A stretch of DNA of 64,000 bases, from positions 34,935 through 98,934 of the forward strand of contig CAZRWW010000010.1 in NCBI GenBank assembly GCA_964603725.1. Reading direction: 5' to 3'. Origin of the DNA: an uncultured bacterium (GTDB taxonomy: Bacteria > Eisenbacteria > RBG-16-71-46 > CAIMUX01 > WJJG01). Within the stretch, counting starts at the first letter, position 1. Each line of letters opens with the position of its first letter. Under the pieces are notes generated by a model. It worked only from the letters and a program-made list of their open reading frames with translations, was not told the DNA's origin and did not search any database. Below, piece after piece: positions 37,514 to 64,000 of the stretch. The position numbers and the translations under genes are program-made.

Positions 37514-37576
37514 AAAGAGACCTCCCTTGTCAACACAACCCTCCCCAGACGGGGAGAGCAATAGGGAGGTCTCTTT
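37514..37576 (+). promoter_or_regulatory. Perfect 13-bp inverted repeat that sequesters the GGGAGG Shine-Dalgarno of the IS630 transposase
   Basis: AAAGAGACCTCCC (37514..37526) pairs with GGGAGGTCTCTTT (37564..37576), which ends 1 nt before the GTG start at 37577. A nested CTCCCC/GGGGAG repeat sits in the loop. Confidence 0.5.
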
Positions 37577-45134: not shown

Positions 45135-45146
45135 AACCAGAGCCTC

Positions 45147-46229: not shown

Positions 46230-46359
46230 GCCCCAGGAACGTCGGTAGGATTCCTCAGTTCCCGAAGATCATACCAGCAGCAAGCCCCAGTGTCATCTGT
46301 TGGCAATCAGCACTCACTCGACGGTAATGACTGGGGTGGGGAGAAGTCAACGGAGCCCC

Positions 46360-46700: not shown

Positions 46701-46975
46701 GAGTAAGAGGAATCTTGTGTCCTTGACCGCTGGGATCTAAGGGGCTTGCGAGACTGGCACGACCGTCGTCGCCCTAGGCGCCGGTGGCCGGGGTGGGGGA
46801 GTATGCTCTGCGCCTGTGCCTGGGCCGGTGGCCACCCCCGGGAGTCTGCATGCCGCGCGTACCGGCGGATCGCCTTGCCATCCACGCCCGTGTGACGTGC
46901 GATCTCCCGCTGGCTGAACCCGTAGCTTATTAGAGTCTTGATCGCTATCCGTAGATGGCTCTTCAAACTGTTCAC
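46454..46975 (-). pseudogene. Chimeric IS remnant ORF: an N-terminal IS-type HTH fused to the C-terminal tail of the IS1380/IS4-like transposase
   Basis: N-terminus MNSLKSHLRIAIKTLISYGFSQREIARHTGVDGKAIRRYARH is an HTH. C-terminus ..LPGRVVRHARCWWLRLSASHP.. equals the end of the 36370..36930 ORF. There is no DDE core. Confidence 0.5.
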
Positions 46976-47170
46976 TCCTTCCCCCCTTCCCTGTGGTGAA
47001 GGGGGTAGGGTAACGTCCCGCCGCTGAGCCGGCGATCAGGTGATGCTCAGCTCACTGCCAGGTGGGGAGTTTGAGGTGGCCATCGCTGGCGGAGCTTGGG
47101 TGGCCACCGGGGCTTTGTGGAAGGAAGGACTCCATCTCATCACTTACAGCCCAACATTGCTGGGGGCGCT

Positions 47171-48181: not shown

Positions 48182-48253
48182 CGCAGACCCTCTTGATCAA
48201 CTCTGCCTGAGCCTACGGCGCTAGGCCACTAGCATCAGGCAGTAGTAATAGCA

Positions 48254-48859
48254 TTAGACAGTGGTGACGACTTGCTTGCCGTTTTTCCAGTAGATGACCC
48301 CGTCAATCAGGCAATCGAGAATCTTGGCCTCCTCCTTCTTGTCGAGACGGATCAGGATCCGGTTGATGCCTGCATCCGACTTCTGCAGATCCTTGGCAAG
48401 CTCATCGAACGTCTTGGTCTCTCCGGTCAGACAGAAGTCACCGCGGAACAGGATGATCTGCGCCCGTAGAGAGGCTGTTGGATATACGTCCGCATCCTCC
48501 CGGAAGACCGTCTTCCCGCTGTCCTTGTCGTACGTCTTCAGAAGACCGCCTTTCTGCGGTTTCAGGGTGACACACAGGTTTTCAAGAGAATTGTTGACGC
48601 AGTCCACATCTCGCAGAGTGATGGAATGGCGATTGCCCTTGGTGACGACTCCGCGATCGCTCACCTTCCGAAGCCGTCCCTCGTGCATTTCCATCAAGAG
48701 CCGGCCGCTTCTGTCTCCCAGCTCAAGATCAGCTTTGGTCTTCAGGCCAGCCGTGGGATCGATCTCGATGGCGAGTTCGATGTTCACTTGCGACAGGACG
48801 AGGGGATGGCTCTCACCGGTCTTCAACTTGCTATCGGTCTGCTCGGGGTCACCCATCAC
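48254..48859 (-). CDS. Hypothetical 201-aa protein; candidate immunity or adaptor within the PAAR2 effector operon
   Basis: Complete ORF with plausible composition and no recognisable motif. It lies between the PAAR C-terminal-domain-family ORF and the PLC-like gene. Confidence 0.4.
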   Translation of the reverse strand: MMGDPEQTDSKLKTGESHPLVLSQVNIELAIEIDPTAGLKTKADLELGDRSGRLLMEMHEGRLRKVSDRGVVTKGNRHSITLRDVDCVNNSLENLCVTLKPQKGGLLKTYDKDSGKTVFREDADVYPTASLRAQIILFRGDFCLTGETKTFDELAKDLQKSDAGINRILIRLDKKEEAKILDCLIDGVIYWKNGKQVVTTV

Positions 48860-48887
48860 GTCTCTCCTGTACAGGCATGCCTACCCG

Positions 48888-49772
48888 TCACTCTCCGGCT
48901 TGCTCAGGCAGGATGGTAACGGTGCAGGTTCCGGGAGGGATGTTATCGAGACGGATGAGACCCTCCTCGTTGATCTGCTCCTCGCGTTCACTACCGTCGG
49001 GAAGCGTAATCCGTGCCCTTCGGTTGGCGGCAGGTTGGCCGTCGACCCCGGCGCAATGGACTTCCATCCAATCCTTGAATCTCAGAAGCTCCGATTCCTG
49101 TTCCGTCCCAAACTCCTTCTCCCCGACCTTCACCGTAAAGAAGTACTCTGGCGGGTTGTAGCCTCCTCCGTACTTCTCCATCTCTTCCTGGGTAGGAATC
49201 TCGTCCGTGTCCTCGTAGTACTCGTACTCCCACTGTACGTCGATCCGCTCGTCGACTACCTGCGCAGGCAGCTCCACGATCTTGTCCGGTGCCCCATTTT
49301 GGTCATACTCGTAGACGGTGACAACAGCCTCTGTCCCGGGTGGCGCCCCCTGCACTCTGGCGGTCATCTTCAGGAGATCCCCCCGGCGAGCCTCCGTCGC
49401 ACTCCACTTGAGGTTGGAGACCTTGATGGGTGGGTAGGCCTGTATCCGATCCGACTCCCCCCGAATCGAGTGCTTGGGCAGTTCCACCATGAAGTAGACT
49501 TCATCCCCGACCTCGATGTCCTCCGGTATGCTGAGTGCTGTGCACAGGACGTTTCGTGAGATCTTCTCTTTGACCTTGCCCAGCTTCTTGCCTCTGACGC
49601 TGCGCCCCTCGATGGTCACCGGCGCGCCCAGGCCGACCATCTCCGTGCGCACCTCGAGTCTGACCTTCTGGCCGCCGAATGCGCATGGGGACAGCCACTG
49701 CGCTCGCACGAGACGCGCCTCGAGCTTGACGGTGTGCTTCGTATCCGTGTCTTTGGTGAACTTGAGATCCAC
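48888..49772 (-). CDS. Standalone member of the PAAR C-terminal domain family (294 aa)
   Basis: Aligns with the C-terminal extensions of both PAAR proteins, for example ..YFFTVKVGEKEF..LLRFKDWMEVHC.. versus ..YYFIVMAGDCMAQSGVLKYKDWIEIKL... It has no PAAR motifs. Confidence 0.5.
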   Translation of the reverse strand: MDLKFTKDTDTKHTVKLEARLVRAQWLSPCAFGGQKVRLEVRTEMVGLGAPVTIEGRSVRGKKLGKVKEKISRNVLCTALSIPEDIEVGDEVYFMVELPKHSIRGESDRIQAYPPIKVSNLKWSATEARRGDLLKMTARVQGAPPGTEAVVTVYEYDQNGAPDKIVELPAQVVDERIDVQWEYEYYEDTDEIPTQEEMEKYGGGYNPPEYFFTVKVGEKEFGTEQESELLRFKDWMEVHCAGVDGQPAANRRARITLPDGSEREEQINEEGLIRLDNIPPGTCTVTILPEQAGE

Positions 49773-50013
49773 TCTATTCCCCTAATGAACTTGGCCCGGG
49801 GGCTGTCGGGAACATCCCAGAACCGAACACGCTGAGCCGGTAGCCCGACGGTTGGCGGCCGGCAGCACACCCTTAGGGCCATGCCGCCCCCAGCTCAACG
49901 AAGCACCCCAACAGCCGCCTACGTCATTCCCGCCACTGAGGACTACGTCACCCCGCGACACCGGTCTACGTCACCGCTGCGATCGCCGCTTACGTCACCG
50001 CCGCGACCGCCGC

Positions 50014-50460
50014 CTACGTCCCCCCCGCGATCGTATCCACCATGCTCGTGATCTGCGGAACCAGCATCTTATTCGCCCGCTTCGAGAGATCCACCCAGCA
50101 AGTGTACCCCGTCCCATCGAGCATCAAGTAAAAGTGCCTGCGGATCAGGGTCCGTCCGTCGGGGTGCGCCCAGCGGCACACCAAGCTGTAGCACTTCTTA
50201 CCGCTCGGGAGCGCCTCCTCGCCTTCGCTGGTGACCTCTGCCCCCGCCAGGGCGTCCAGGGCCGCATCTCGACGCAGGCGTGCATACGCCTCCAGGGCTG
50301 CCGACTCGGGTTTCGGATCAATGTTAATCAGTAACGTGGGTTGTTCGCCCACGTCTTCCGGGCCAACGAAGCAGTGGACCGTGCGGTCTTCCCACCCGTC
50401 GGGTAGGAGCAGCTTGAACTGATGATTCGTCCGATCCGTCACGATGGCCTCACGACCCAC
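50014..50460 (-). CDS. DUF1795/Eag-family effector-associated chaperone
   Basis: 148 aa with the F.LLLPDGWEDRT motif characteristic of DUF1795 (EagR/EagT) adaptors. It lies immediately downstream of a PAAR gene. Confidence 0.65.
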   Translation of the reverse strand: MGREAIVTDRTNHQFKLLLPDGWEDRTVHCFVGPEDVGEQPTLLINIDPKPESAALEAYARLRRDAALDALAGAEVTSEGEEALPSGKKCYSLVCRWAHPDGRTLIRRHFYLMLDGTGYTCWVDLSKRANKMLVPQITSMVDTIAGGT

Positions 50461-50506
50461 CGGCGGCGGGCAGCGTCCGCAAGGACTCCCCGGCCCTCAG
50501 TGCCGC

Positions 50507-51634
50507 CTAGCTGCCTTGGCTCCGAAGATCGAATGACACCTCAACCTTCCCCGGAGCAATCTTCTCGACCCTGGCCTGGCCCTGCGAGTCCAGCTGGCCT
50601 TCCCTTATCTCACCGTTCGGCATGCGCAGCTTGTACTTGGCGTTGCCGATCGGCTGATCCTTTTCATCAACCAGCTTGATCTCGATCCAATCCTTGTACT
50701 TCAGCACGCCCGATTGCGCCATGCAGTCGCCCGCCATGACGATGAAGTAGTACGATGGGGTTGAATAGGCGCGTTTTGGAGCGCTTTCGTCGTCTTCCGG
50801 GATGGCATTCTCGACCTTGAACTCCCATTCGGCTTCGATCTTATCGCCACTGACCTGGGAATCCAAGGTGTACAAGATCCGGTCGGGGCGCTTGTTGTCG
50901 CGGGCGAAGATGCGCAGGGTCGCCGGTGTGCCGCCGTCGATGCCGGAGGTCTCGGCGGTCAGCTTGACCTTGTCGCCGACCGCAGCCTCCGCGACGGACC
51001 AGTTCGCGTGATGAATCACCCGTAGCTGGATCTCGTAGCTGCCTTCCTCGACCCCTGTACACTTGAGATGTCCCGCTAGCATTCCTTGGGTCACCTTGCC
51101 GGAGGGGTACTTGAGTTCGTACTTGAGATCCGACACCGGGAACCCGCCTTGATCGACGAACTTGACGTCGAGGAAATGGGTCTCTTCCTCAGCTTCAGCC
51201 TCACCCTCACCGGCGGCCTGGCCCTCAGCGCTGCGATCAGCAAGCGCGAGCTCGGCGGCCACCTGCGCGCCGCCCTTAACGCCCGCACCCCGGCCCGAGC
51301 CCGTACGGCCGGCGCCGCCTCCACCTCCGCCTCCGCTCTGGCCGATCAGGACGGTGAAGCATCCCATGGCGATCGTATCCGGCGGTCCCGCGCATTGGCA
51401 CATGTCGCCCACGCGAGCTGCCGGCATGCCGCAGATCAGGACATTGGGGGATCCCATCGAAATCGGACCGCCGACGTGAGGGGAGGGACCGGGGTTCATC
51501 ATGGGGCAGACGTGCATGTCGCCGACGCGAGCCGCCGGGGCTCCCCCGATGAGCACAGTCGGCGCCCCGGCGACGACCTTCCCGCCATGGACGGTGGTGT
51601 CACCCAATCGCGCAGCCGGCTTAGACATGAGCAA
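50507..51634 (-). CDS. PAAR-repeat spike-tip protein with a Gly-rich linker and the same ~200-aa C-terminal extension domain
   Basis: N-terminal PAAR motifs (AARLGDTTVHGGKVVAGAPTVLIGGAPAARVGDMHVCPM..). A poly-Gly linker is followed by a C-terminal domain homologous to the 45147 PAAR C-terminus. Confidence 0.85.
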   Translation of the reverse strand: MLMSKPAARLGDTTVHGGKVVAGAPTVLIGGAPAARVGDMHVCPMMNPGPSPHVGGPISMGSPNVLICGMPAARVGDMCQCAGPPDTIAMGCFTVLIGQSGGGGGGGAGRTGSGRGAGVKGGAQVAAELALADRSAEGQAAGEGEAEAEEETHFLDVKFVDQGGFPVSDLKYELKYPSGKVTQGMLAGHLKCTGVEEGSYEIQLRVIHHANWSVAEAAVGDKVKLTAETSGIDGGTPATLRIFARDNKRPDRILYTLDSQVSGDKIEAEWEFKVENAIPEDDESAPKRAYSTPSYYFIVMAGDCMAQSGVLKYKDWIEIKLVDEKDQPIGNAKYKLRMPNGEIREGQLDSQGQARVEKIAPGKVEVSFDLRSQGS

Positions 51635-51980: not shown

Positions 51981-54725
51981 ATGCCCAACTTGGGTTGGGC
52001 CTCAGGTTCGGTACGCAGATGGCTTCCTGCGGAGTACGTGCCCGTGGAAGTAGCGAAGCTTGAGGCCGGGGTGCTGCGACTGCTGGAGCTGGCTAACAGC
52101 TTCGCGCGGGAGCGGCGCCACCGCTATGTGATGCCCGAGCACGTCCTCTTCGTGCTGGTCGGGGAGGAAGCCGGGCTGATTCCCTTGCTCCTCGATAAGT
52201 TACGTACGACGCGCAACCGCATCCGCAGCCATCTCGAAGACGTGCTCCGCTTCGCCGTGCAGCAGGCCTACCTTCCCGATGCGCTCCCTCTGGCCAAGAA
52301 GACGCACGGCCTCTTCGATCACGCCGTGAAACTTGCCGCTGCGAACGGGCACCCCAAGGCCGGTCCGGGCGACCTGTTCCTGGCGCTCATCTCTCAAGAA
52401 GGCTTCCTGGCGCAGGAAACCATCGCCAAGATCGGCATTTCGGCAGAGAAGGTGCGCCAGGCGCTCGCCGAGCTGGCCAGCATTGAGGACATGGTCGCGT
52501 CCGAGTCCGGCGAAGAAGAGGCCGACGAGTTTGGCGTCGAACACGCGTCCGATAAGCCCCGCGCCCAGGGCTCGGCGCTGCGCTTCTGTGCCGACGTGAC
52601 CGTCGCGGCCGAGGAGGGCCGGCTGCCGCCGCTCATCGGCCGCAAGACGGAGCTGTCCCAGATCGTCGAGATCCTGAGCTGCCGGGAGTCCCGCAATCCC
52701 CTGCTGGTCGGGGACGCCGGGGTGGGCAAATCCGCCCTGATCGAGGGACTCGCCCAGAGGATCATTGCTGGGGAGGTCCCTGACAGCCTCAAGGGCAAGC
52801 GCATCCTGTCGCTCGATGTGGGAGCCCTCGTTGCCGGCGCCTCGTACCGGGGCGAGTTCGAGGAGCGGTTCAAGAACGCTCTGGCCGAGCTGGAGCGCCG
52901 CAAGGGGATGGTGATCCTGTTCGTCGACGAGATCCACACCCTGATGGGCGCGGGTGGGCAGCGGGGCGGGACGGACGCGGGCAACCTGCTCAAGCCCGCC
53001 CTGGCCCGCGGTGAGGTGCAGGTTATCGGCGCGACGACCTACGACGAGTACCGGCAGCACATCGAGAAGGACAAGGCCTTCTCGCGCCGCTTCGCCAAGG
53101 TCGACATCGCCGAGCCCGATCCGTGCGAATGCCTCGAGATCCTCAAGGGCGCGGCGGCGCGTTTCGAGGCACACCATCGCGTTCATTACACCGAGGCCGC
53201 CCTCGACCAGGCGGTGAAGATGAGCATCCGCTACCTGCGTGACCGCGCGAACCCGGCCAAGGCCGTCGGGCTGATTGACCGCGCTGCAGGGACGCTGCGG
53301 GTGGCGCTGGAGAACTGCGCGAAGGAGCTCGAGCTGCTGCAGGGCATGGCGAGCCTTGCAGCAGAAGCGTCCACGGAAGCGGTCGCGCCGGGTGAGCTTC
53401 AGGCCGTGCCAGGGGATCCTCAAGTCGCGTCGGGCTCGCCAGGGGCGGAGGCGAGACCGCTCGGACCGCGGGGCGACGGCGATGAGGACGTCGACTGGCC
53501 GACCACCCAGGCGCGTTTGATCCGGCTGCTGCCGGAACGCCAGCATCCGCCGGGCCTCGCCGGCGCCGCAGCGGGGATTGCCGGCAGCGCACCGGAGCCT
53601 CCCGCTGGCGCGCAGCTCCAGGCGATGCGCGAGTACTTGGCCACGTTGGTTCCCGATGTGGGCCCGGCCGCCATTGCCGAGGCCATAGCGTCGCAGACCG
53701 GCATCCCGGTGTCCAAGGTCACCCAGGATGAGAAGGAGAAACTGCTGCGGCTCGAGGAGGCGCTCGGCACGCACGTGATCGGCCAGGACGAGGCGATTCG
53801 CGAAGTGGCCCGCGCCATCCGCCAGGCGCGGATGGGTGTGAAAGATCCGCGCCGGCCGGTCGGGTCGTTCCTCTTTCTGGGGCCGACCGGCGTGGGCAAG
53901 ACCTGGCTCCCGAAGGTGCTGGCGGAGCAGCTGTTCAACGATCGGGACGCGTTGCTGCGTTTCGACATGAGCGAGTTCGGCACATCCGAGCAGGTGTCGC
54001 GTCTGAAGGGCACTTCGCCCGGCTATGTTGGCTACGAACAGGGCGGGGAATTGACGGAGGCGGTGCGTCGCAACCCCTACAGCGTGGTCCTCTTTGACGA
54101 AGTCGACAAGGCGCACGTCGAGTTGTACAAGATCTTCCTCAACATCCTGGAAGAGGGCGAACTCACCGACGGTCAGGGCCGCAAGGCGGACTTCCGCAAT
54201 GCCGTGGTCATCATGACCGCCAACTGGGGCGCTCAGGAGCTGCTGACCGCCGGTGAGAAGGGTCGCAAGCTGTCGAACGACGAAGTCCGCGCCATCGTCC
54301 GCAAGGGGAGCGCCATTGTCCCCGGTCGGCAGGTGGGGGTGGGATTCACACCGGAGCAGATGAATCGCTTCGATGCGCTCGTTCCCTTCTATCCGCTCGG
54401 GCGCGACCACATCTACCGCATCATCGACCTTGAGTTCGAGGCCGTTGCCGCCCGTTTGCGCGATCGGCACATCAGCATCGCGCTCACTGAGGAAGTCCGG
54501 CAGTTTCTCCTCGCAGGTGGGCACGATCCCCAGTACGGCGCCCGCCCCCTGCGCAATTTCATGACGCGCACGCTGGTGGATCAACTCGCCACAAGCCTGC
54601 TCGAAGGGGACGTGGTTGACGGGGGTGATTACCGCGCCGTCGTTCAAGACGGGGCGATCAAGATCGTTCGCATGTCCGATGAGCCCAACCAAGGTCCGGG
54701 CGAAGCGGACATGACGGATGGATAA
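51981..54725 (+). CDS. tssH: ClpV/TssH-type AAA+ ATPase (Clp_N domain plus two AAA+ modules)
   Basis: Clp_N-like N-terminus ..[29 protein letters not shown]... D1 [13 protein letters not shown] and [11 protein letters not shown]2 [25 protein letters not shown] and a sensor-2 region. The start is uncertain, either ATG 51981 or GTG near 52039; the track start 51750 is an upstream extension. Confidence 0.8.
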
Positions 54726-54769: not shown

Positions 54770-55237
54770 GTGCAAATGGCGGAGAAGTACCAGCGGCTGA
54801 TTGACGCTCTCCCCGCTGAGCTCAAGGAGAATGTTCAGGCCATGGACCTGAGCAACACGATCATCGTGGGGGAGTTCGGTGAGCACAAGCAGAACGAACT
54901 GGTTCCCGTGCCGACCATCAAGAAGGCCTTCGAGACCTACGAGCCGTCCGTCGAAATCTCGGTTGAGACGGTGGATGGCGACACTGCCAGCGAGGTGCTT
55001 CGCTTCCGCGAACTGAAGGACTTCGAGGTCGAACGGGTCGTGCCGCAGTCCAAGGCGTTGTCGGAGCTGAGTGCGGCCGTTGACGTGTATGCCGATCTGA
55101 AGGGCACGCTCGGCAAGTCCCCCAAGTGGAAAAAGCTGTTCGAGGACCCCAAGCTGCGGGCGGGTCTGGTGGAACTGCTCGATCAGATGCTGAAGGTCAT
55201 TGATCCGGAAGACAAGACCAAGGTGGCAGAGAAGTAA
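54770..55237 (+). CDS. tssB: T6SS small sheath subunit TssB (VipA-like)
   Basis: 155 aa. The motif TIIVGEFGEH matches the conserved TLVVGDFKGH segment of VipA. It lies immediately upstream of a ~460-aa TssC-sized gene. Confidence 0.6.
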   Translation: MQMAEKYQRLIDALPAELKENVQAMDLSNTIIVGEFGEHKQNELVPVPTIKKAFETYEPSVEISVETVDGDTASEVLRFRELKDFEVERVVPQSKALSELSAAVDVYADLKGTLGKSPKWKKLFEDPKLRAGLVELLDQMLKVIDPEDKTKVAEK

Positions 55238-55255
55238 GGAAGCGGGGGAGCAGTC

Positions 55256-56638
55256 ATGGCAGATGCAGAACAGAAAGAAACGCGTGAAAAGGTCAAGCTT
55301 GAAGAGAAGGAGCTTGAGAAGATCAAGGAACAGCTTCTCCCGATGCTCCCGGCGCTCTTTCCCCGAGGAGGCACATTCGTCGGGGAGATGTTGCCCAGTG
55401 CTGGCTTGTTCGACCCCGAAGATCCCGGCGCCACCAAGGAAGCGGTTGAAGCACTCACCCCCTACCAGTGGCTAGCGCTGGCGATGCGCCTGCGCCTGGC
55501 CCGCCGGATGCTCGACGAGGCCGCCACCCTGACAGATGCTGTTCAAGCGGCTGAGAAGCAACACACCCGGCACCAGGAAGCCCTGGACAAGAATCTTCGC
55601 TCGGTCTACGAGCAAATGCGTCCGCTGGAGATCCAGTACCGCACGCTGAACCAGTTCTTCGACAACGCTGCGGCATCCCCGGGGGCAAATGTCTCGGTGG
55701 AGATTTACAACACCCCACCAGCGTCGTTGTTCGAGGACGCGAGCGAGTCGCTGGCCGTGCTCACGAAAGAGATCCAGGGAACCAATGCCGAGGCATTTCA
55801 CCAGAGCAAAGCCAAGTCCTTGCTCGTGATTCCCGGGCACTGGGCTGAGAACAAGTATCTCAATCGCCTCGAAGCTCTGCTGGCGGACAACCGTGTCAGC
55901 TTGTTCACAGACATTTTCGCCGGTCAAAAGCGCATGGACAACTACGACGCCGTACAGGACAAGCTGGAGCTCGAGACCTACAAGGGGCTCAAGCAGGGTT
56001 CTGAGGGTCGGGCGCACATGTCCGTCTGCGTAAATGAGATCTGCGGGCGCCAGAAGTACGCCTGGGAAGATGATCACATCTGGATTCCTGCCTCCACAAC
56101 TGTGGCCGGGCGTGTGTACAATGTGGACCAGGCATGGGAGGCCATCAAGGAGGGTGCGGCTGGCTACAAGCGCGGGAAAGCCCTGGTCTCCTCCCCGATG
56201 GTGCGCATCAAGCTCAACAACGCCAGCACGGGCGCTCTGGCCAACACGTACAATTTGATTCCCATGATCGAGTCGAAGGGCGACGTGTTTATCATGGGTG
56301 TCGGTTCGCTCTGTACCGACGAGACGATGAAGCAGTACCCCACCGTGCGGATCTACGATTTCATCCAGAAGTCGATGCTGGATTACAGTCGCACACTCCT
56401 GTTCGAGCGGTTCAGCGAGAAGTCGAAGGAAACCGTCAAGGCAGGCCTGCGGCGGTTCTTCGATGGCCTGGTGAAAGAGGGTGTGATCGAGTCCTACTCA
56501 GATTTGACCGTGGAACGGGATGGGAAGCCCGGGGAAAAGGGGAAAGCGCGAGTCTTGGTGAATGTCAAATTCTACGACATCGTGACACAAGTCCGAACGG
56601 GCGTGAAATTCGACGAAGAGGGCAACGTCGAGAAGTAG
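55256..56638 (+). CDS. tssC: T6SS large sheath subunit TssC (VipB-like)
   Basis: 460 aa. Position and size fit the TssB-TssC pair. The assignment rests on context and on homology to the downstream paralog; no signature motif was verified by eye. Confidence 0.55.
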   Translation: MADAEQKETREKVKLEEKELEKIKEQLLPMLPALFPRGGTFVGEMLPSAGLFDPEDPGATKEAVEALTPYQWLALAMRLRLARRMLDEAATLTDAVQAAEKQHTRHQEALDKNLRSVYEQMRPLEIQYRTLNQFFDNAAASPGANVSVEIYNTPPASLFEDASESLAVLTKEIQGTNAEAFHQSKAKSLLVIPGHWAENKYLNRLEALLADNRVSLFTDIFAGQKRMDNYDAVQDKLELETYKGLKQGSEGRAHMSVCVNEICGRQKYAWEDDHIWIPASTTVAGRVYNVDQAWEAIKEGAAGYKRGKALVSSPMVRIKLNNASTGALANTYNLIPMIESKGDVFIMGVGSLCTDETMKQYPTVRIYDFIQKSMLDYSRTLLFERFSEKSKETVKAGLRRFFDGLVKEGVIESYSDLTVERDGKPGEKGKARVLVNVKFYDIVTQVRTGVKFDEEGNVEK

Positions 56639-56642
56639 GCAA

Positions 56643-58184
56643 TTGAATCGAGGGGCGGCGAGCCATGACCCAGCAGCCTGGAAAGGCAAGCTGGAACGGC
56701 AACCGGAAAGGCAAGCCGGCAAGGGCACGGCGGGATGGGTGGGATGGATGGCGGGGCAGGGCTACAGCGAATTCCTAGCGGGCTTCAATCTGAGCTGTGG
56801 CATGCGAATGCCGAGCAGCGGGTCGGTGTTTGCAGAACACGCCGACGGTTCGCTGGAGCTGGCCGCGGACGCGTCGAATCTTGACCGGAGGCTACTGAGA
56901 CGCCGGCTGCGGTGCCTGCGGGAGATCCTGGAAGACGGACAGGACATCGAGGCGGCGCGAGCGCAAGCTGAGGCCCGCCATGGGGCTCTGACGCAGCGAC
57001 TCGAGGGAGCGCTGCGAGCCGTCTACAGACAGACGCGGCCGATCGAGGCGGTCTGGCGAGGTCTGGGGGTCTTTTACGAGGAGGCGGCGCCTGAGGGCAA
57101 GGAGATCCCGGTTTGGGTCTGGAATGGCAACTCCCCGAAATGGGTCACTGTAATGCGCGACCTGGATCCAACATTCGTCCTCGCCCCGGGGTGTCAGGAG
57201 CCGCCGCCGCAGTTGGACGAATGGAACGGCACCTACCCGCAGCCGATTCTGTTCGGTGACCGGGAGCTGCCTGCCTACGACGAGCCTGTGGGATCTCACG
57301 ACCATCGGGAGGAGACCAGCCCCGGACCCGGCCGGCAGGACGGTCCGGAGACCCTGCCATCACGCTATGCCGCGTGCGTGAACGAAGTGGAAGGCCGCGC
57401 TGCCTACCCCTGGGAGGACGAGCCGCTCTGGGTTCGGCCGAGTTTCGCGGTAGCTGGCGTGCACGTTCGGCACTGGCGGGGAGGGTACTGGCGGAGCACC
57501 GGGGCAGGGCACTGGACTGGACGGCTGCAGCGTGCCCGCAAGACGAGGGTGCGCATGCAGGTGACCCAGGCCGTCACCTTGCATGAGGCGGGCTACGCCG
57601 CCATCACGGAGGACGGCCGAGGAGTGATGGCCATCGGCGATCGGACATTCCCGTTGCCGGGGCATCATCCGGCGGGACTCGGGGCCCTCAAGCTGGAAGC
57701 GGCCGTCACCCGGATCGTCTGCCAGCGCTTTGCAGCGCGCGCCCGCAAAGCCACGCCGGGTCCTGGCCCGGGGCTTGACCCCCGACAGGAAGCCGAGGCC
57801 GTCCTGCACGATTTCAAGGTGCACCGCGTGCTTGATGACTACAGCGTCAGGCGGCAGTTGGGCGCGGGTCCGGAAGCCCCCATGGAGATGACGCTCACTG
57901 TGGACGGGGTCTCTGCCAGTTCATGGCTGATCCGCCGCACGCGCGAGGAAGTCGTCTCGCGGTCGCGGGCGGACAAGCTGCCGATGCCCGAGCGGTTGGA
58001 GGCCGCCGTCCGGAGACGGGAAGCAAAGCCTGAGCCGGTCGCGGTCGGCGTGTCTGTGAACGCGCCGGACGCCAAACCACAGGAGGGGCTGGAGCCGATC
58101 CCCGCCAGAGAGAGGGGTGGAATTGGGGAGTTCATCAGCTCCCTGTTCGGACAGATGTTCCGCGGACGGGACCGGAAGCGCTGA
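56643..58184 (+). CDS. Diverged TssC-like paralog (513 aa) with markedly higher GC and Arg content than the neighbouring genes
   Basis: Alignable with the 55256 protein (LRSVYEQMRPLEIQYRTLNQFFDNAA..VSVEIYN versus LRAVYRQTRPIEAVWRGLGVFYEEAA..IPVWVWN, and MSVCVNEICGRQKYAWEDDHIWIPASTTVAGRVYNV versus YAACVNEVEGRAAYPWEDEPLWVRPSFAVAGVHVRH). Confidence 0.5.
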   Translation: MNRGAASHDPAAWKGKLERQPERQAGKGTAGWVGWMAGQGYSEFLAGFNLSCGMRMPSSGSVFAEHADGSLELAADASNLDRRLLRRRLRCLREILEDGQDIEAARAQAEARHGALTQRLEGALRAVYRQTRPIEAVWRGLGVFYEEAAPEGKEIPVWVWNGNSPKWVTVMRDLDPTFVLAPGCQEPPPQLDEWNGTYPQPILFGDRELPAYDEPVGSHDHREETSPGPGRQDGPETLPSRYAACVNEVEGRAAYPWEDEPLWVRPSFAVAGVHVRHWRGGYWRSTGAGHWTGRLQRARKTRVRMQVTQAVTLHEAGYAAITEDGRGVMAIGDRTFPLPGHHPAGLGALKLEAAVTRIVCQRFAARARKATPGPGPGLDPRQEAEAVLHDFKVHRVLDDYSVRRQLGAGPEAPMEMTLTVDGVSASSWLIRRTREEVVSRSRADKLPMPERLEAAVRRREAKPEPVAVGVSVNAPDAKPQEGLEPIPARERGGIGEFISSLFGQMFRGRDRKR

Positions 58185-58240
58185 CCGATGCGTTCCAGAC
58201 CGTTCTAGGCACGACGTAACAGCCAACGGAGGACAAAGCC

Positions 58241-58672
58241 ATGGCAGAGAGACTCGGTCGGGTCGAAGTGATGATCGAGGGGCAGCCCGAGCAGGAGGTA
58301 CTCACTTTCGTGCTCGAGGCCGAGACACCCGTCGACTACAAAGGCGCGCCGCAGGGGCAACCCGTCTTCAGGCGGCTGACATTCACGACGCGTGTGATGC
58401 AGGGGATGCACGATGCAGTGGGCTGGTGCCTCAACGAGCCGCGCACCGCACACAACCTTCGCAACGGGACTGTCAAGTTCTACGACAAGAATGGCGAAAA
58501 CTACCAGACGCTCGAGTGGACCAATGGATTCATCGAAGATGCATCGTGGGTCCTACCCGATGCGGAGAAGGACGAGCAGCAGAGAGTCTACATGAAGTAC
58601 CAGGTAGTTGCACAGCGGATCAACATCGGCGGCACGGAACTTGCGAACCCGTGGCCCAACATCTACGGGTAG
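58241..58672 (+). CDS. Hcp-like tube protein paralog 1
   Basis: 143 aa. Size, position between sheath and VgrG, and similarity to the next ORF (VKFYDKNGENYQTLEWTNGFIEDAS versus VIEFYDQAQVVLKAEFTNALVADYR). Confidence 0.5.
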   Translation: MAERLGRVEVMIEGQPEQEVLTFVLEAETPVDYKGAPQGQPVFRRLTFTTRVMQGMHDAVGWCLNEPRTAHNLRNGTVKFYDKNGENYQTLEWTNGFIEDASWVLPDAEKDEQQRVYMKYQVVAQRINIGGTELANPWPNIYG

Positions 58673-58713
58673 AGACCCTATTCCAGAAGCTGAAATGAAG
58701 GAGGATCGCAGTC

Positions 58714-59136
58714 ATGGCATTTGACGGAAGAGTCGTCATCGACGGTAACGAGATCGACAAGATCCGCAATGTGCAGTTCGGTGTCCGGAACAAGGTCGAC
58801 GATATCACCACCAACCCCTCCGGAAGCACCCGTAACAACCTGATCATCATCGAGCGCGAGCACGACCAGTCGAACTTCCTCTGGGAGTGGGCGGTGAGCG
58901 CCAAGAAGGAGAATCGCAAGAACGGCGTCATCGAGTTCTACGATCAGGCTCAGGTGGTTCTCAAGGCAGAATTCACCAACGCGCTCGTTGCCGACTACCG
59001 CATCATGCTGGGCGAAACGCAGTACGAGCGCACGGCCATGCAGATCCGTGAGCGTGTCGAGATCTCCACAGAGCAGTTGGCGCTCGAAACCCTCGGTGGA
59101 AGGGTTGAGCACAGCGATCAGTGGGATATTCGTTAG
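58714..59136 (+). CDS. hcp: Hcp (TssD) tube protein paralog 2
   Basis: 140 aa. Typical Hcp size and context immediately upstream of vgrG. Sequence pattern is consistent with the Hcp family. Confidence 0.6.
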   Translation: MAFDGRVVIDGNEIDKIRNVQFGVRNKVDDITTNPSGSTRNNLIIIEREHDQSNFLWEWAVSAKKENRKNGVIEFYDQAQVVLKAEFTNALVADYRIMLGETQYERTAMQIRERVEISTEQLALETLGGRVEHSDQWDIR

Positions 59137-59227
59137 CAGGGCGGCCTCCTGATCAGGATATCGTCGGCCGGCCGGAGGCTGCTGATTCCGGCCGGCCCGC
59201 CAGCCTGTGCTAGCCGGAGGTGCCCTC

Positions 59228-61201
59228 ATGCATGTCGTGACAGAGATCAAGATTGGCGGCGCCTCGTTGCCATTCAATGTCAGGAGCATCCGCTGGCTCC
59301 AGTCGCTCTACGACTACGACCGATTCACGATCACGTTGGCAGACCCCAATCTGGTGGACGGTTCGGGTCCTGTAGCTGACATCACTCAACGCCTGGCCGC
59401 GCAACTCGGTCAGCCGGTCATCGTTGATCTGCAGTCAGGCGGTGAGGAGTGGCGCGAGCACCTGGCGGGATTCGTCACGGGGGTTCGCGGGCGGTACGTC
59501 CAGCGAGGGGTGGAGGTCGTGTTGGAGGGAGCTGGGGCCGCGCACACGCTGGACAAGGCCGTTCACACGCGGGTCTTTCAGCAGTTGACCTGGAAGGAGA
59601 TTGTCGAGCAGATTCTCGCGCCCGCTTCTAGCCAACTGAAGGGCTCTACTGTGAAGCTGGGGCCCTTCGAATCCGTCAAGGTCCCTTTCTGCTGCCAGTA
59701 TCAGGAGACGGACTTTGCTTTCCTACGGCGTGTGTGCGGCCGGCTCGGGCTCGTGCTGTGTGCTGGCGGGAATGGTCTCGTGCTGGTGCCGGCCAAAGAC
59801 TTCAAGGGCATTCCCGGGTGTGATGTCCGGAGGGAGCTCATTCCCGGGGCCAACTGCCGCTACGTGGAATCGCGTGTCCAGGCGGTTCCGGCAATGACAG
59901 AAACGGCAGGCTACCAACACTACGGCGAGCGCGGTCTCCAGGATGGCAACTACGGCGATGAAGAGACGCGCACGTGGTCGTCGACTCCCGAAGCTGCCGG
60001 CGGTGGGCTGACCGCCACGGGCCTGGATTCTGGCCGCACGCTGTATACGTCTCCGGGGTCGGTCCATGAGAGCGGCGTGCACTGGTCCCAGGAGGAGTTC
60101 GACAACCGAGTTGCCCGGTGGGGGATGCACGCTGCAGGTGCGGTCGTGCGTTTCGAAGGAAGGACCTGGGTCCCCGACCTCAGGCTGGGACATCAGGCAG
60201 TGGTGAAGCCGGAGAGCGCCCTGGCTGTCGACTGGGTCAGCAGTGAGAGCATCCTGGTGACCTCTGTGGAGCACACGATCGAAGCTGGCGACTACACCAA
60301 CCTGTTTGTAGGCTGTTCGGTGCCAGCCCCACCGCTGCTGAACCCGAATGACTTTCCGCCGCGGCAGCGCTTCGTAACCTTGCCGGCCCGGGTCGTGCAG
60401 AGTGATGATCCGAGCCGAGTGGGGCGCGTGCGGGTGCAGCCGCTCGTGCTGGAGAGCAGCTGGCTTCCCGAGACGATCCACGTCCGTGTGGCAGCCCGAT
60501 CGGCCGGGCCCGATCATGGCGAGTTGATGCTTCCGGAAGTGGGAGACGAGGTTCTACTGGCGTTTCATCCGGACGCTTGCGAGGAGCCGTACGTCACGGC
60601 CATCTTCTACAATGGCACGCACAAGACGCTTCCGGACAAGCTTCCGGCGCACACCGAGCTGGAGCAAGCGCAAGTCGATAAGAACGACCTCAAGTGGGTA
60701 CTGACTCGCGGCGGAAACGCACTCATCTTCGATGATACCCAGGGCAAAGAACGTCTCCTGGCAGTGACCAAAACCGGATCCTTGGAGCTCAGCGAAGTCG
60801 CCGCCGGTCCGCACATGGCGCTGACGGTGCGGGATGGCAGCGAACCGATGTGCATTCTCACGTTCGACAAGAAGGGCCAAGTCACGTTGAAGGCCACCAA
60901 TGTGCTCTTCGACATCAAGGAGTCGATGGAGATCAAAACGGGCGAGCACTTCACGCTGGATGCGAAGGGGAAGATCACCCTCAAGGCGGGTGAAGACTAT
61001 GATCTGAAGGCCCAGGGCAAGGTCCAGACGAAATCGGGAACTGACACGATGCTCGACGCGGGGACCAAGGCCACGGTCAAGTCCGGAACGGACACCAGTG
61101 TCCAGGCGGGGATGAACCTGAAGCTCCAGGGGGCTGCTCAGGGTGAGCTCAAATCCGGAGCCATCATGACGATCAAGTCTGGCCTAGTGAAGATCAACTG
61201 A
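59228..61201 (+). CDS. vgrG: VgrG (TssI) spike protein: gp27-like hub, gp5 OB-fold and a C-terminal beta-helix
   Basis: gp5-OB/Phage_base_V-like segment ..HVRVAARSAGPDHGELMLPEVGDEVLLAFHPDACEEPYVTAIFYN... C-terminal repetitive K/T/G-rich beta-helix (..LKAGEDYDLKAQGKVQTKSGTDTMLDAGTKATVKSGTD..). Confidence 0.85.
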   Translation: MHVVTEIKIGGASLPFNVRSIRWLQSLYDYDRFTITLADPNLVDGSGPVADITQRLAAQLGQPVIVDLQSGGEEWREHLAGFVTGVRGRYVQRGVEVVLEGAGAAHTLDKAVHTRVFQQLTWKEIVEQILAPASSQLKGSTVKLGPFESVKVPFCCQYQETDFAFLRRVCGRLGLVLCAGGNGLVLVPAKDFKGIPGCDVRRELIPGANCRYVESRVQAVPAMTETAGYQHYGERGLQDGNYGDEETRTWSSTPEAAGGGLTATGLDSGRTLYTSPGSVHESGVHWSQEEFDNRVARWGMHAAGAVVRFEGRTWVPDLRLGHQAVVKPESALAVDWVSSESILVTSVEHTIEAGDYTNLFVGCSVPAPPLLNPNDFPPRQRFVTLPARVVQSDDPSRVGRVRVQPLVLESSWLPETIHVRVAARSAGPDHGELMLPEVGDEVLLAFHPDACEEPYVTAIFYNGTHKTLPDKLPAHTELEQAQVDKNDLKWVLTRGGNALIFDDTQGKERLLAVTKTGSLELSEVAAGPHMALTVRDGSEPMCILTFDKKGQVTLKATNVLFDIKESMEIKTGEHFTLDAKGKITLKAGEDYDLKAQGKVQTKSGTDTMLDAGTKATVKSGTDTSVQAGMNLKLQGAAQGELKSGAIMTIKSGLVKIN

Positions 61202-61203: not shown

Positions 61204-61593
61204 ATGGGTGGCACCATGAGCAGAGTGGATGCGAGGTCTGGGCCGGGACGCATCATTGCGCTGCCCGTGCGGATGCGCGATGGGAGATTCCAGGTGCAAG
61301 AGGCGGCGGATGCGCTCGCGCGCTTCGCCCGCTGTTTCTTTAGCGAGTACCAGGGGGCAGTGCCTGATGACCCCGCGTTCGGAGGACGCGGGATTCCGTG
61401 GGGGACGAAGGCCGCTCCCTTGCTGCCCCTGGAACCGGTGATTCAGGAATTCAGGAACCGCTACGGAGCGGACTTCGCGATCACTGTGTTGTTGGAGGAG
61501 CGGCCTCATGGTTCAGGTGGGCGACAACGGATACGTGTGATCCGCATCACCTTGAGGGCTTTCCCTGAGCTCAAGATCGAGATAGAAATCTGA
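61204..61593 (+). CDS. gp25/TssE-like baseplate wedge protein (tentative)
   Basis: 129 aa, located directly between vgrG and tssF as in many T6SS and contractile-injection-system loci. The call rests on size and context only. Confidence 0.4.
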   Translation: MGGTMSRVDARSGPGRIIALPVRMRDGRFQVQEAADALARFARCFFSEYQGAVPDDPAFGGRGIPWGTKAAPLLPLEPVIQEFRNRYGADFAITVLLEERPHGSGGRQRIRVIRITLRAFPELKIEIEI

Positions 61594-63368
61594 TGTCTGT
61601 CAGCCAACGGCCAGTACCCAGTCGAGCCGATGTTGCCGCAGTGTACGCGCGGCTGAAGAGCGAGGCCGTGCGCTGCGGCCTGCTAGGACCAGCGGGTCGC
61701 CCCGATCCAATCCTGGAGACGCTGCTGCAGGGTTTCGCCCGCGAGATCGCTGCCCTGCAGCTCGAACTCGAAAGGTCGCTCGACGACAACCGGCGCAACC
61801 TGCTCGCGCATTTCCTGGGGCTTGGCTACCGGCGTCAGCCTGCGCAGGCTCTGGTGGCGTTCTGCATGGATCGCCCCCAGGGTGTGGACTGCCTGCTCAA
61901 ACTCGCGGGCACGCCGGCTGCCGAGGGGCGATCCGACAAGATCCGCCTCTCCATTCCGGGGTCATTCCGGCTACCGGCGCTCAAGCTGTCGGCGGCGGCC
62001 TACACGGGTCCGGGAGGTTTGGTTCTGTGGGAGTCGGACGCCAAGCAGTCTGTCAGAACGGTGGATGCACCGCGAGCGTGCGGAGCATTCGGCGAACCGG
62101 GTCCCCCGACGATTCACCTTGGGCTGGCCGGGACACCGCCGGGCGCCGGGGAGATCTTGTCGATCGCCGTAGTACCTCCGGAGGAGACCACGTCGATCCT
62201 CGCTCGCGACGGCGCCGAACTGGTCTCATATCGCCGCTGGCTGATGCGCGGCCGTTTCCTGTCAGGGGCGGGCCCTCTGGGGCCACCAAGGCGGCCTGAT
62301 GAGGTCACGCGGCAAACATCGGTTCGTGATGCCGTCAGCAGCCAGCTCCCCACAAAAGGAGCGGCCATGCGGCTGGCCCTCGAGCGCCACATCTACGGCG
62401 AGCTCCTGTTCATTTGGGAGGGCCCGCTCGTAGAGTCCTTGGCGGTCGGAGAACCGCCGGAGACGCTGAGACGCGCCGCGGCTGATCTGGCGCCCGATGA
62501 TCTCGAAGAGTGGGGGGGCGAACTGCGTTGGCTTTCGATCGAGTTGCCGAACCTGCCCCGGGGTGACCCCCTGCGCCTCTTCAAAACGCTCGCGGTCAAC
62601 GCGTTGCCCGTGATCGCCTACCGCGAGCTGCGCCCCGATCGCAACAACATCAGCTACGATGAAATCGTCGCGCAGACCGGTGTGGTGTCCTACCCCTTGT
62701 CCAATGAGCTGCACCAGGCGCTCCAGCGAGATGACTGGGTCGTTGACCGGGTTGAATGCTCCGGGGAGGAATTCCCTCACGTTCAGGAACACCCCGATCC
62801 TGAGAAGGGATGGTACGCCTTGGTTTCAGATTCGCGCAGTTCAACGATCTATTTCCATGTGCCGGAAGACAGACCGGTACACATGGGGACGTTGGATCTC
62901 TACATTGGACAGCTTGTAGGAGAAGAAGGCAATGGGGCGCTGATCGAACCCAACCCGTACAATCGAGCCAGCTACTCCGGCCTCCGCAGTGTGACTGCTG
63001 TCACTGAGACCGTGGGGGGCACTGGCGAGTACGAGGGTGACCACGAGCTGCCCTGGGAAGCGGTAGGGTCTTTTCTGCGGACGCGGGACCGCCTCATCAC
63101 GCGTTGGGACTATGACGGGTTCATCCGGAGATTCGACCCGCGCATTGCGGCCTGCAGCTTCCGGAATGTGGCCCTACAACGCGAAGACGCCTTCTTGCCC
63201 GGTGTCGCCATAACTGTCCACTTCGATCAGGAGCTCAACGTGCCGCGGGCGGATTGCCAAGTGGCCATCGCTCTGCTGGCACGGGAACTCGAACGCCGGG
63301 CAGCTCTGGGTACGCAATTGGAGGTGAGATTGGGAGAGCCGCGGGCTCGGATGGCGGAGGCGCTGTGA
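61593..63368 (+). CDS. tssF: T6SS baseplate subunit TssF
   Basis: 591 aa. N-terminal DPILETLLQGFAREIAALQLELERSLDDNRRNLLAHFLGLGYRRQPAQA matches the conserved TssF N-terminal segment (DP.VERLLEGFAFL.ARI..KLDDEFPE.T..LL..LYPHYLRPIPS). Confidence 0.75.
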   Translation: MSVSQRPVPSRADVAAVYARLKSEAVRCGLLGPAGRPDPILETLLQGFAREIAALQLELERSLDDNRRNLLAHFLGLGYRRQPAQALVAFCMDRPQGVDCLLKLAGTPAAEGRSDKIRLSIPGSFRLPALKLSAAAYTGPGGLVLWESDAKQSVRTVDAPRACGAFGEPGPPTIHLGLAGTPPGAGEILSIAVVPPEETTSILARDGAELVSYRRWLMRGRFLSGAGPLGPPRRPDEVTRQTSVRDAVSSQLPTKGAAMRLALERHIYGELLFIWEGPLVESLAVGEPPETLRRAAADLAPDDLEEWGGELRWLSIELPNLPRGDPLRLFKTLAVNALPVIAYRELRPDRNNISYDEIVAQTGVVSYPLSNELHQALQRDDWVVDRVECSGEEFPHVQEHPDPEKGWYALVSDSRSSTIYFHVPEDRPVHMGTLDLYIGQLVGEEGNGALIEPNPYNRASYSGLRSVTAVTETVGGTGEYEGDHELPWEAVGSFLRTRDRLITRWDYDGFIRRFDPRIAACSFRNVALQREDAFLPGVAITVHFDQELNVPRADCQVAIALLARELERRAALGTQLEVRLGEPRARMAEAL

Positions 63369-64000
63369 TTTCCGCAGAGGCCAGCAGTGCCCCGCGGGGC
63401 AGGCCTGTAGCTGCAGCAACGGGACGTGTTCCCGAAGTGCGCTTCCGACGAAAGCACTGGCTTAGCTTCACCTGCGAGGAGGCGATCACTCTGGCGCTCG
63501 ATGCGATCGGCCGTGGCGAAGAGGGCCTGGAGCAGATCCGCGTGTTCATGGAGGGCTCCCATCGAGCACCGCTGCCGGACTTCTCGGAGAAGACGGGAAG
63601 CATTGTTCCTTCCTCCCGCACCAGCATCACACTTGGGCAGCAGATTGAGCTCCACGTGCGACGCGCGGGTCTTTTCGAACGCTTCCCGAGCGTGCTCTTC
63701 TCCGATTCGGCGGCCTACGTCAATGCCAGGGGTGATGCGGCGTCGGTTCAGCACGTGGACCAGAGCGAAGAAGAGGCCCGCCGCTATCTTCAGCCTTTCG
63801 ATCGCGAGTCGATGTTCGTACGGGCGCGCAACCGTTTCTGGACCAGCATGATCGCTGGAGCGCGGCCCGGTGAGCTCTACCGCGACTTCGTGTGGAGGCT
63901 CTTTGGGCTTCCGGAGGCATGCCGGGCGCTTGTCCGCCAGATGCTACCGGAACGCGATCAAACCGTCCTCACGTTCCTCCTGCCGCATCTGGGTCAGATT
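63365..64000 (+). CDS. tssG: TssG-like baseplate subunit; partial, continues beyond the window
   Basis: The frame is open from the GTG at 63365 (GTGA overlap with the tssF stop) to the window end. Its position immediately after tssF is the conserved tssF-tssG order. No signature motif was verified by eye. Confidence 0.45.
   Translation, partial: MISAEASSAPRGRPVAAATGRVPEVRFRRKHWLSFTCEEAITLALDAIGRGEEGLEQIRVFMEGSHRAPLPDFSEKTGSIVPSSRTSITLGQQIELHVRRAGLFERFPSVLFSDSAAYVNARGDAASVQHVDQSEEEARRYLQPFDRESMFVRARNRFWTSMIAGARPGELYRDFVWRLFGLPEACRALVRQMLPERDQTVLTFLLPHLGQI

Follow-up and report, generated by a model that had tools for sequence, protein, structure and literature searches.

A conserved, diverged TssC paralog with a predicted sheath fold, encoded by an uncultured Eisenbacteria bacterium in a T6SSiii-related type VI secretion operon

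The DNA analysed here is a stretch of 64,000 nucleotides (nt), hereafter the window, from contig CAZRWW010000010.1 of an uncultured bacterium of the Eisenbacteria lineage (assembly GCA_964603725.1). A single operon on the + strand spans 52.0–64.0 kb of the window and encodes a type VI secretion system (T6SS) in the order ClpV–TssB–TssC–TssC'–TssD1–TssD2–VgrG–(TssE-like)–TssF-like–TssG-like, TssC' being the name used here for a diverged paralog of the large sheath subunit TssC. All the open reading frames (ORFs) that a first-pass annotation of this DNA had described are present, and the T6SS identity that it had proposed was borne out by ClpV and a split TssB/TssC sheath, both recognised with Pfam and NCBIfam profiles. 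The small, VipA-like sheath subunit TssB is encoded in single copy at 54770–55237 (+; PF05591 T6SS_VipA, 26.2 bits, cut-off 24). It is followed at 55256–56638 (+) by the canonical large subunit TssC, of the T6SSiii type, with a PF17541 match of 133 bits (E = 1.6e-38) and further matches to Phage_sheath_1C (E = 3.8e-6, 27.3 bits) and to the PHROG tail sheath profile (E = 1.2e-6). TssC' comes next, at 56748–58184 (+), and then the genes for two Hcp-type tube paralogs, TssD1 at 58241–58672 (+) and TssD2 at 58714–59136 (+).

The ORF of tssC' opens with a TTG codon at 56643, from which a protein of 513 amino acids (aa) had been read initially. The most likely start is instead the ATG at 56748, giving 478 aa, as judged from a protein of that length (P0020) that clusters with a 100%-identical fragment (P0008); this start also fits the N-termini of the orthologs. 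A 20-nt direct repeat (56680–56724; GGAAAGGCAAGCTGGAACGG / GGAAAGGCAAGCCGGCAAGG, 25 nt apart), not conserved in the other loci, lies in the stretch that separates the stop codon of tssC from the probable ATG of tssC'.

The homology between TssC and TssC' that the first-pass annotation had noticed was recovered in three ways. BLASTP aligned both proteins with 24% identity over 206 aa (E = 1e-12). Profile-profile comparison gave a probability of 99.4% (E = 1.9e-21) over 331 columns, covering residues 17–367 of TssC' and 42–416 of TssC, so that the homology is not limited to the N-terminal half as had been assumed. Moreover, a phmmer search with TssC' against 1.84e9 proteins had a TssC (P0006) as its first match outside the TssC' family, with an E value of 1.6e-10. 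A similarity of this size, detected by sequence methods, is far beyond chance. Ten invariant core residues are shared by TssC' and all the TssC proteins (E100, R104, N126, G148, D171, N212, R217, E223, G237 and G297). At the level of Pfam the signature is lost in the C-terminal half, and TssC' reaches 18.5 bits with PF17541, below the gathering cut-off of 25; a sequence-profile search of the PDB with TssC' produced at best a marginal match to TssC1 (E = 0.27).

Both genes also differ in base composition, with 67.7% GC for tssC' and 58.0% for tssC, in a window with a mean of 67.4%. The figures given at first pass (65% and 52%) had to be corrected. The low-GC outliers are in fact tssB, tssC and tssD, while tssC' sits at the window mean. 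GC content at third codon positions (GC3) is 0.78 in tssC' and 0.76 in tssC, and the difference is located in codon positions 1 and 2. Because GC3 is equal, the contrast corresponds to amino-acid composition and is no sign of a separate origin: TssC' is rich in Arg, Gly, Ala and Pro and TssC in Lys and Glu, with Arg at 11.5 vs 5.6% and Lys at 2.1 vs 7.6% (TssC' vs TssC). A foreign origin of tssC' as judged by GC was rejected, given the equal GC3 and the position of the gene at the window mean. The periodicity of tssC' is of coding type (GC3 0.78 > GC2 0.53).

Structure prediction with AlphaFold2 (AF2), carried out for TssC' on an 18-sequence alignment of TssC' and TssC proteins, gave a model with a mean predicted local distance difference test (pLDDT) value of 71.5 and a predicted template modelling score (pTM) of 0.65. 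In a Foldseek search with this model, all of the 50 matches listed were contractile sheath proteins, and TssC from M. xanthus, TssC1 from P. aeruginosa and VipB aligned over 427–477 columns. The model of TssC itself (pLDDT 73.3) had significant matches (E < 0.001) exclusively to sheaths, VipB and TssC1 among them, and the template modelling score (TM-score) to VipB was the same for the TssC and TssC' models (0.46–0.47). By these predictions TssC' is as sheath-like as TssC, and the sheath fold that had been singled out at first pass as decisive for this protein is present in the model.

The secondary structures of both AF2 models were compared through sequence alignments. TssC' keeps the N-terminal strand region, with an invariant Pro in an M/LPG motif, the long helical hairpin (H44–61/H67–113, corresponding to H69–88/H92–138 in TssC), the central beta core with the motif PSRFAxCxNxxxxRxAYPWExxPxW...AVAGVH, the C-terminal domain, and a C-terminal amphipathic strand whose counterpart in the alignment is the final conserved strand region of TssC. 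The terminal strands predicted for TssC', one at each end, coincide in position with the linking arms of sheath subunits. TssC' lacks four helical segments found at the periphery of TssC, namely the Lys/Glu-rich H3–27 and those at 155–174, 199–210 and 230–245, and TssC' gains a disordered loop (178–200) whose length differs greatly among orthologs. TssC' also carries a C-terminal tail of about 85 residues (395–478, encoded at 57930–58184, +) that TssC does not have. It consists of a variable Pro/Ala-rich linker followed by a basic amphipathic helix, conserved in the ortholog alignment as GGIGxxhRxhFxRhFxGxG; pLDDT falls below 50 at 395–414 and 426–458, and the helix is predicted at 459–471. 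With an isoelectric point of 11.0 and a net charge of +6, the tail is markedly different from the core, which has a net charge of -5.

The distribution of TssC' was analysed in loci from contigs with TssC relatives, plus one reached through a TssC' homolog. A word-indexed search of 5.8e9 proteins returned seven relatives of TssC, one of them from a metagenome-assembled genome (MAG) of Candidatus Eisenbacteria (Eiseniibacteriota); in the same kind of search TssC' as a query had no match, and the TssC' profile retrieved a single member of the family. The TssC alignment, run against GTDB representatives, led to a single contig, identical to that of locus L004. The alignment of TssC' contains no conserved 7-mer. 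With phmmer, 13 hits to TssC' were found among 1.84e9 cluster representatives, seven of which are TssC' clusters (two of these being fragments); the other six are all TssC-sized, and the four that were looked up carry PF17541. Thus, the TssC' family is rare, amounting to about seven clusters in the 1.84e9 proteins searched.

The order ClpV-TssB-TssC-TssC'-TssD-TssD-VgrG, followed by proteins of ~120, ~590 and ~380 aa, is shared by six loci: that of the window, L001 (from the Eiseniibacteriota MAG GCA_017991665.1), L004, L007, L008 and L012. The duplicated arrangement is therefore not peculiar to the window, its recurrence in five other metagenomic loci supporting that it marks a T6SS variant. 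TssC' orthologs are 33–39% identical to the TssC' of the window, and 47 columns, including W, C, G and P motifs, are invariant in seven TssC' sequences. Mean pairwise identities between orthologs, computed over five loci, were 67% for ClpV, 54% for TssB, 58% for TssC, 37% for TssC', 60% for TssD1, 63% for TssD2, 58% for VgrG, 42% for the TssE-like and 54% for the TssF-like protein, which makes TssC' the fastest-evolving protein of the operon, at about twice the rate of TssC by this sequence measure. Within a genome, identity between paralogs is ~25% for TssC and TssC' and ~23% for TssD1 and TssD2.

In a neighbour-joining tree, TssC' proteins (70% bootstrap), the TssC proteins of the same clade (72%) and distant PF17541 TssC proteins (100%) form three groups, the branching order among which is not settled. 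The topology of TssC' mirrors in part that of the TssC tree: L001 and L012 are paired with 100% support in both, and in both L007 and L008 fall outside the group formed by the window, L001, L004 and L012. Because of this partial agreement, TssC' was probably already present in the ancestor of the clade and inherited with the operon. More distant loci of T6SSiii type, used as outgroups, lack TssC': in L011, TssC is followed by TssD, in L013 by the start of a TssD2-like gene, and L014 has the order TssB-TssC-TssD-TssD-VgrG-...-TssG. It is probable that tssC was duplicated in the ancestor of this small clade and that the copy was kept directly downstream of tssC. As L014 has two TssD genes and no TssC', the tube duplication is older and wider than that of the sheath.

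Such divergence could be that of a decaying duplicate without function. TssC' has, in effect, the lowest conservation in the operon, scores below the Pfam threshold for TssC, and contains low-complexity insertions. Nevertheless, its reading frame is intact, at 430–560 aa, in seven of seven lineages, across a divergence over which TssC is at 48–65% identity, and the invariant columns, the conserved position, the partly TssC-like tree and the coding-type periodicity all speak against decay, to which we give next to no credence. Because the ORF is intact in all lineages and contains invariant motifs, a tssC' pseudogene was rejected.

The rate of TssC' also bears on whether it could polymerise along the whole sheath together with TssC, for instance in alternating TssB–TssC and TssB–TssC' layers whose loops and tails would decorate the surface. 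The sheath core is complete in TssC' and neither terminal strand has been lost, tssC' adjoins tssC inside the operon in every locus, and alternating sheath paralogs, Pvc2 and Pvc3, do exist in the Photorhabdus virulence cassette (PVC) (PMC12546770). A subunit in stoichiometric amounts would be expected to be as constrained as TssC, whereas TssC' is at 37% vs 58% and has large insertions of variable length. In addition, TssC' has lost the N-terminal and other peripheral helices of TssC, and in canonical systems these helices belong to the surface domain that is recognised for recycling by ClpV. We regard a mixed sheath as quite unlikely. Another possibility is that TssC' acts outside the lattice as a soluble assembly factor or regulator, such as a chaperone of TssB/TssC, a decoy restricting polymerisation, or an adaptor of ClpV with its C-terminal helix as a docking peptide. 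Its fast evolution, its score of 18.5 bits against a PF17541 cut-off of 25, and a conserved short motif at the end of a disordered linker, a layout typical of docking peptides, would agree with such a role. However, the terminal strands, the core and the invariant residues that TssC' shares with all TssC proteins argue for lattice contacts, leaving a soluble factor as a slim prospect.

The two tube genes were analysed in the same way. TssD1 and TssD2 both pass the PF17642 (TssD) threshold of 25.8, with 44.0 and 43.4 bits, and are related to each other (BLASTP E = 2e-4; hhalign probability 92%, E = 5e-7). Two mutually similar Hcp-like ORFs of ~140 aa are thus present, as first described, and the doubt then raised that the first of them might be unrelated is settled by its PF17642 score. 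The best PDB match of TssD1 is Hcp1 (6bdc), followed weakly by Bacteroidales TssD, and that of TssD2 is also 6bdc (E = 5.3e-6), which we take to be the Hcp1 of Flavobacterium. Tube families of extracellular contractile injection systems (eCIS) matched TssD2 below threshold, with 21.3 bits for T4 gp19 (cut-off 28.2) and 20.9 bits for TIGR02241 (cut-off 62.4). Of the two, TssD2 gives the higher scores with the TssD proteins of L014, L011 and L013 and is thereby, on sequence grounds, the copy closer to the outgroup TssD. The initial premise that a T6SS locus carries one Hcp was too strict, as L014 also has two adjacent TssD genes, and Bacteroidales T6SSiii loci commonly carry several. As identity is 60–63% between orthologs and yet 23% between the copies, comparison of these sequences argues for two non-redundant roles. 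TssD2, the more canonical copy, would most likely build the bulk of the tube, and the other TssD might serve as a specialised ring or adaptor beside VgrG and TssC', or as a cargo carrier, in analogy to Pvc5 with respect to Pvc1.

Having paired sheath and tube genes, the locus had been interpreted at first pass as either a hybrid or a new T6SS variant. The variant part of this proposal stood, the arrangement being conserved, and the hybrid part did not, as the sequence relatives are of T6SS type. For a hybrid, the second sheath and tube genes would have been acquired from a system like the antifeeding prophage (Afp) or PVC. The closest relatives of TssC' are however TssC proteins of PF17541 type, beside which TssC' is monophyletic, and tssC' does not differ in GC3 from the genes around it. 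TssD1 and TssD2 are above the PF17642 threshold, and the best PDB matches of both are Flavobacterium or Bacteroidales Hcp. Moreover, the ATPase is a double-ring ClpV, not of Afp15 type, the sheath is made of separate TssB and TssC subunits, and the scanned genes contained no tape-measure, cap or fibre family, all of which makes such an acquisition highly improbable. The eCIS hybrid was rejected on the grounds that the relatives of TssC' are T6SS-type and those of TssD are Hcp-type.

The remaining genes of the operon are less uniformly assigned. The AAA+ unfoldase ClpV/TssH is encoded at 52044–54725 (+), in an ORF that opens at 51750; the likely start is GTG 52044, where the ortholog N-termini (MELAKLEPGVL) align and which has GGAG upstream. 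Pfam recognises Clp_N, AAA, AAA_2 and ClpB_D2-small, with two AAA modules. The TIGR03345 VI_ClpV1 profile matches end-to-end with 649 bits, short of its equivalog cut-off of 885, and ClpB scores higher; the product is named ClpV because of its conserved position, directly upstream of tssB in six of six loci. A segment of clpV at 53300–53750 is the GC-richest stretch of the region (0.72–0.73) and encodes an Ala/Pro/Gly-rich low-complexity segment between the AAA modules, roughly at the site of the ClpB middle domain. At ~893 aa vs 833–882 aa, the ClpV of the window is longer than most orthologs. The VgrG/TssI spike lies at 59207–61201 (+), supported by Phage_GPD (E = 2.6e-19) and Phage_base_V (E = 1.8e-14), with TIGR01646 and TIGR03361 matches that fall below their cut-offs. 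The small basic protein at 61204–61593 (+) is called TssE-like by position alone, its place after VgrG being kept in all loci; it has no Pfam, NCBIfam or PDB match, and its gp25 likeness is unconfirmed, the L014 homolog alone matching gp25 weakly (E = 0.051). A TssF-like baseplate protein at 61593–63368 (+) matches PF05947 T6SS_TssF below cut-off (E = 0.064), as does its L008 ortholog (E = 9.6e-5); size and position are conserved. Finally, the start of a TssG-like gene at 63368–64000 (+) runs off the window end. By tblastn it is 46% identical to a 380-aa protein of L008 (E = 5e-57), and PF06996 T6SS_TssG is matched solely by the positionally equivalent gene of outgroup L014. The window stops inside the operon at 64000, and genes further downstream lie outside it.

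A divergent operon on the - strand was found upstream of clpV in L004 (410–6228) and L008 (522–6475), encoding a weakly TssK-like protein of ~480 aa, a ~312-aa protein, a Double-GTPase/IcmF-N-like protein of ~835 aa and a GAP1-N2-like protein of 289 aa. A TssK-like protein of 479 aa occurs in L004, L007 and L008 (weak, E = 0.11) and was not found in the window, nor was an operon of the L004/L008 type found in its 64 kb. The baseplate and membrane-complex components that are missing for this type of T6SS might be among the proteins of this operon. In its place, the window has PAAR modules, which form part of a - strand region at 41118–51634. Two PAAR proteins with long C-terminal extensions are encoded there, one at 50507–51634 (-; PF05488 PAAR_motif, E = 4.8e-25), divergent and upstream of the T6SS operon, and the other at 45147–46229. 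Their neighbours are a DcrB-like protein of 148 aa (50014–50460), a Zn-dependent phospholipase C-like protein (47171–48181), a 1338-aa protein without family match (41118–45134) and several ORFs without assignment. By their sequences, these genes look like T6SS effector and immunity/adaptor modules. Weak transposase matches were also detected, to DDE_Tnp_1_4 at 36722–37903 (-; E = 1.7e-4) and to a TnsD-like family at 46454–46975 (-; E = 6.7e-4), and the presence of such matches among putative effector modules hints at mobile-element activity beside the T6SS locus.

Farther from the operon lie two large genes, next to each other, for regulatory or ATPase proteins: a STAND-type protein with BTAD, NB-ARC and TPR domains is encoded at 25770–29093 (-), and a protein of 1223 aa at 28987–32658 (-) shows an unusual combination of a STAND-like P-loop, a ClpB-type AAA_2 with D2-small, and PCRF (peptide chain release factor). 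An ORF of 3112 aa at 14272–23610 (+), whose sole family match is a C-terminal FlgD_ig-like domain, may encode a giant secreted or cell-surface protein; a similar but much weaker C-terminal match is present in a 1144-aa protein of L012, encoded downstream of its T6SS genes. An Rfam scan of the window gave no match.

On the basis of its sequence and models, TssC' is a conserved, intact sheath-fold paralog in which the core and the predicted terminal strands are retained, with a basic, flexible tail that ends in a conserved helix. As for its role, the reading that we favour, tentatively and at somewhat less than an even chance, is that TssC' is a lattice-competent protomer that forms a terminal ring in low copy, likeliest a baseplate-proximal "sheath initiator" comparable to Pvc4 or Afp4. 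As a true lattice subunit it would probably pair with the only TssB of the locus, and its tail would tether the end of the sheath either to the inner membrane or to a partner in the baseplate or the membrane complex. The high divergence and the length-variable loops of TssC' favour a low-copy part over a main polymer. Sheath arms are donated towards the baseplate in pyocins and T4, and for this reason a C-terminal extension would be easiest to fit in the first ring. In PlPVC1, Pvc4 forms a single initiator ring, which rests on the tube ring of Pvc5 and is joined to the gp25-like Pvc9 by strand exchange, the trunk being built of Pvc2 and Pvc3 and the tube of Pvc7, Pvc5 and then Pvc1 (PMC12546770), and in Anabaena the first tube layers are formed by Cis5 and Cis7 (PMC8894136).

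TssA, in turn, is absent from T6SSiii and T6SSii (PMC13584744), which leaves room in a T6SSiii-like machine for a new end-organising part. The same absence, together with the lack of any ImpA_N/TssA match among the window genes scanned, could point to the opposite end, where TssC' would occupy the last ring as a distal cap or anchor that replaces TssA/TagA and whose tail keeps the sheath, once extended, attached to the membrane on the far side until it fires. A long flexible linker with a cationic amphipathic helix would suit this task, and fast evolution suggests low-copy behaviour. The known caps TssA, Afp16/Cis16 and gp15 are however not sheath-fold proteins, and a protomer in which both donor strands remain would not be enough to halt polymerisation. 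As sequence does not tell the distal from the proximal end, we consider a distal cap unlikely, without giving it up altogether.

Several observations weigh against a baseplate-proximal ring, or at least against parts of it. The position of TssC' in the machine is a matter of pure inference. The TssC rows in the AF2 alignment bias the TssC' model towards the TssC fold; the sequence homology between both proteins is independent of this bias. The hydrophobic moment of the terminal helix (0.52–0.88) is not exceptional, internal helices being comparable, and its possible likeness to C-terminal membrane-targeting helices such as that of MinD is no more than a lead. The existence of two TssD genes without TssC' in L014 means that the duplications of tube and sheath are not functionally tied. 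Regarding a low dosage of TssC', no promoter, terminator or unusually stable RNA fold was found between tssC and tssC' in the window, and this intergenic DNA is not conserved across loci. L008 does have a 12-bp GC-rich hairpin followed by U6 directly after the tssC stop (11396–11480; minimum free energy -38.7 kcal/mol, z = -3.1), which is terminator-like and was missed by the consensus scan; nothing comparable exists in the window. By its sequence, this hairpin would fit a reduced read-through into tssC' and a lower TssC' dosage in the L008 lineage. In any case, polarity is not a general route to low TssC' dosage, because tssD, located downstream, must be highly expressed.

A more far-reaching proposal, which we put forward as a doubtful one, is that the clade represents a separate T6SS class in which an eCIS-style division of labour evolved independently. 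TssC' would then be an initiator or anchor ring, paired with a specialised first TssD ring, and a MinD-like membrane-targeting tail would couple the sheath end to the cytoplasmic membrane or baseplate, replacing in part TssA/TagA or the membrane complex.

T6SS sheaths have been described as polymers of a single TssB–TssC protomer, and specialised sheath and tube subunits so far in extracellular phage-tail-like injectors, not in T6SS. Neither a TssC paralog inside a T6SS operon nor a T6SS in Eisenbacteria was reported in the literature searched, and TssC paralogs are absent from the review of T6SS classes (PMC13584744). How the first sheath ring is seated on the baseplate, and how the sheath ends are organised in the classes that lack TssA (T6SSii and T6SSiii), are standing questions in the field. 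If TssC' acts as a specialised terminal ring, T6SS can make use of such rings as eCIS and phages do, and TssC' would be a concrete candidate for the missing end-organising function. The locus also extends T6SSiii-like machinery to a candidate phylum outside Bacteroidota, in a tiny, uncultured clade.

Among known systems, the closest is the T6SSiii of Bacteroidota (Flavobacterium johnsoniae and the GA1–3 loci of Bacteroidales). The system of the window resembles it in its PF17541 TssC and PF17642 TssD, families that were presumably built from T6SSiii, in the nearest solved relatives of its TssD proteins (Hcp1 6bdc and Bacteroidales TssD), in the split TssB/TssC sheath accompanied by ClpV, VgrG and PAAR, in having more than one tssD gene, and in the absence of a detected TssA. 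It differs from T6SSiii in the extra TssC-derived subunit TssC', in a TssC that is 22–25% identical to the nearest other PF17541 TssC found, and in the divergent operon with TssK-like and IcmF-N/GTPase-like proteins of some related loci. The lineage is also different: T6SS is divided into four classes and T6SSiii is restricted to Bacteroidota according to a 2026 review (PMC13584744), whereas our lineage lies outside that phylum, its relative L001 being a Candidatus Eiseniibacteriota. The T6SSiii membrane complex consists of TssN, TssO, TssP, TssQ and TssR (PMC10781749); here, none of these families, nor TssJLM, was detected among the scanned window ORFs or in the available flanks of related loci, which are incomplete and whose proteins may be too diverged for such a match. 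From these sequence comparisons, we describe the system as a T6SSiii-related T6SS variant.

TssA and TagA of T6SSi are candidates for the same job as TssC', that of organising or anchoring the end of the growing sheath, but they have no sequence or fold relation to it, TssC' being a sheath-fold protein without ImpA_N. Of the eCIS, the sets compared were Pvc2/3/4 with Pvc1/5/7 and Afp2/3/4 with Afp1/5/7. Unlike in these systems, TssC' goes back to a TssC of T6SS type, the sheath consists of two subunits, and ClpV is encoded for recycling; the genes scanned (the DNA downstream being outside the window) included none for a tape measure, cap, fibres or an Afp15-type ATPase. Phage_sheath_1, the N-terminal family of unsplit eCIS and phage sheaths, matches neither TssC nor TssC', and the Phage_sheath_1C and PHROG tail-sheath profiles match TssC and not TssC'. 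Neither Pvc4 nor Afp4 is known to have a counterpart of the TssC' tail and its amphipathic helix. The likeness to eCIS is therefore one of organisation and not of membership, and it probably arose by convergence.

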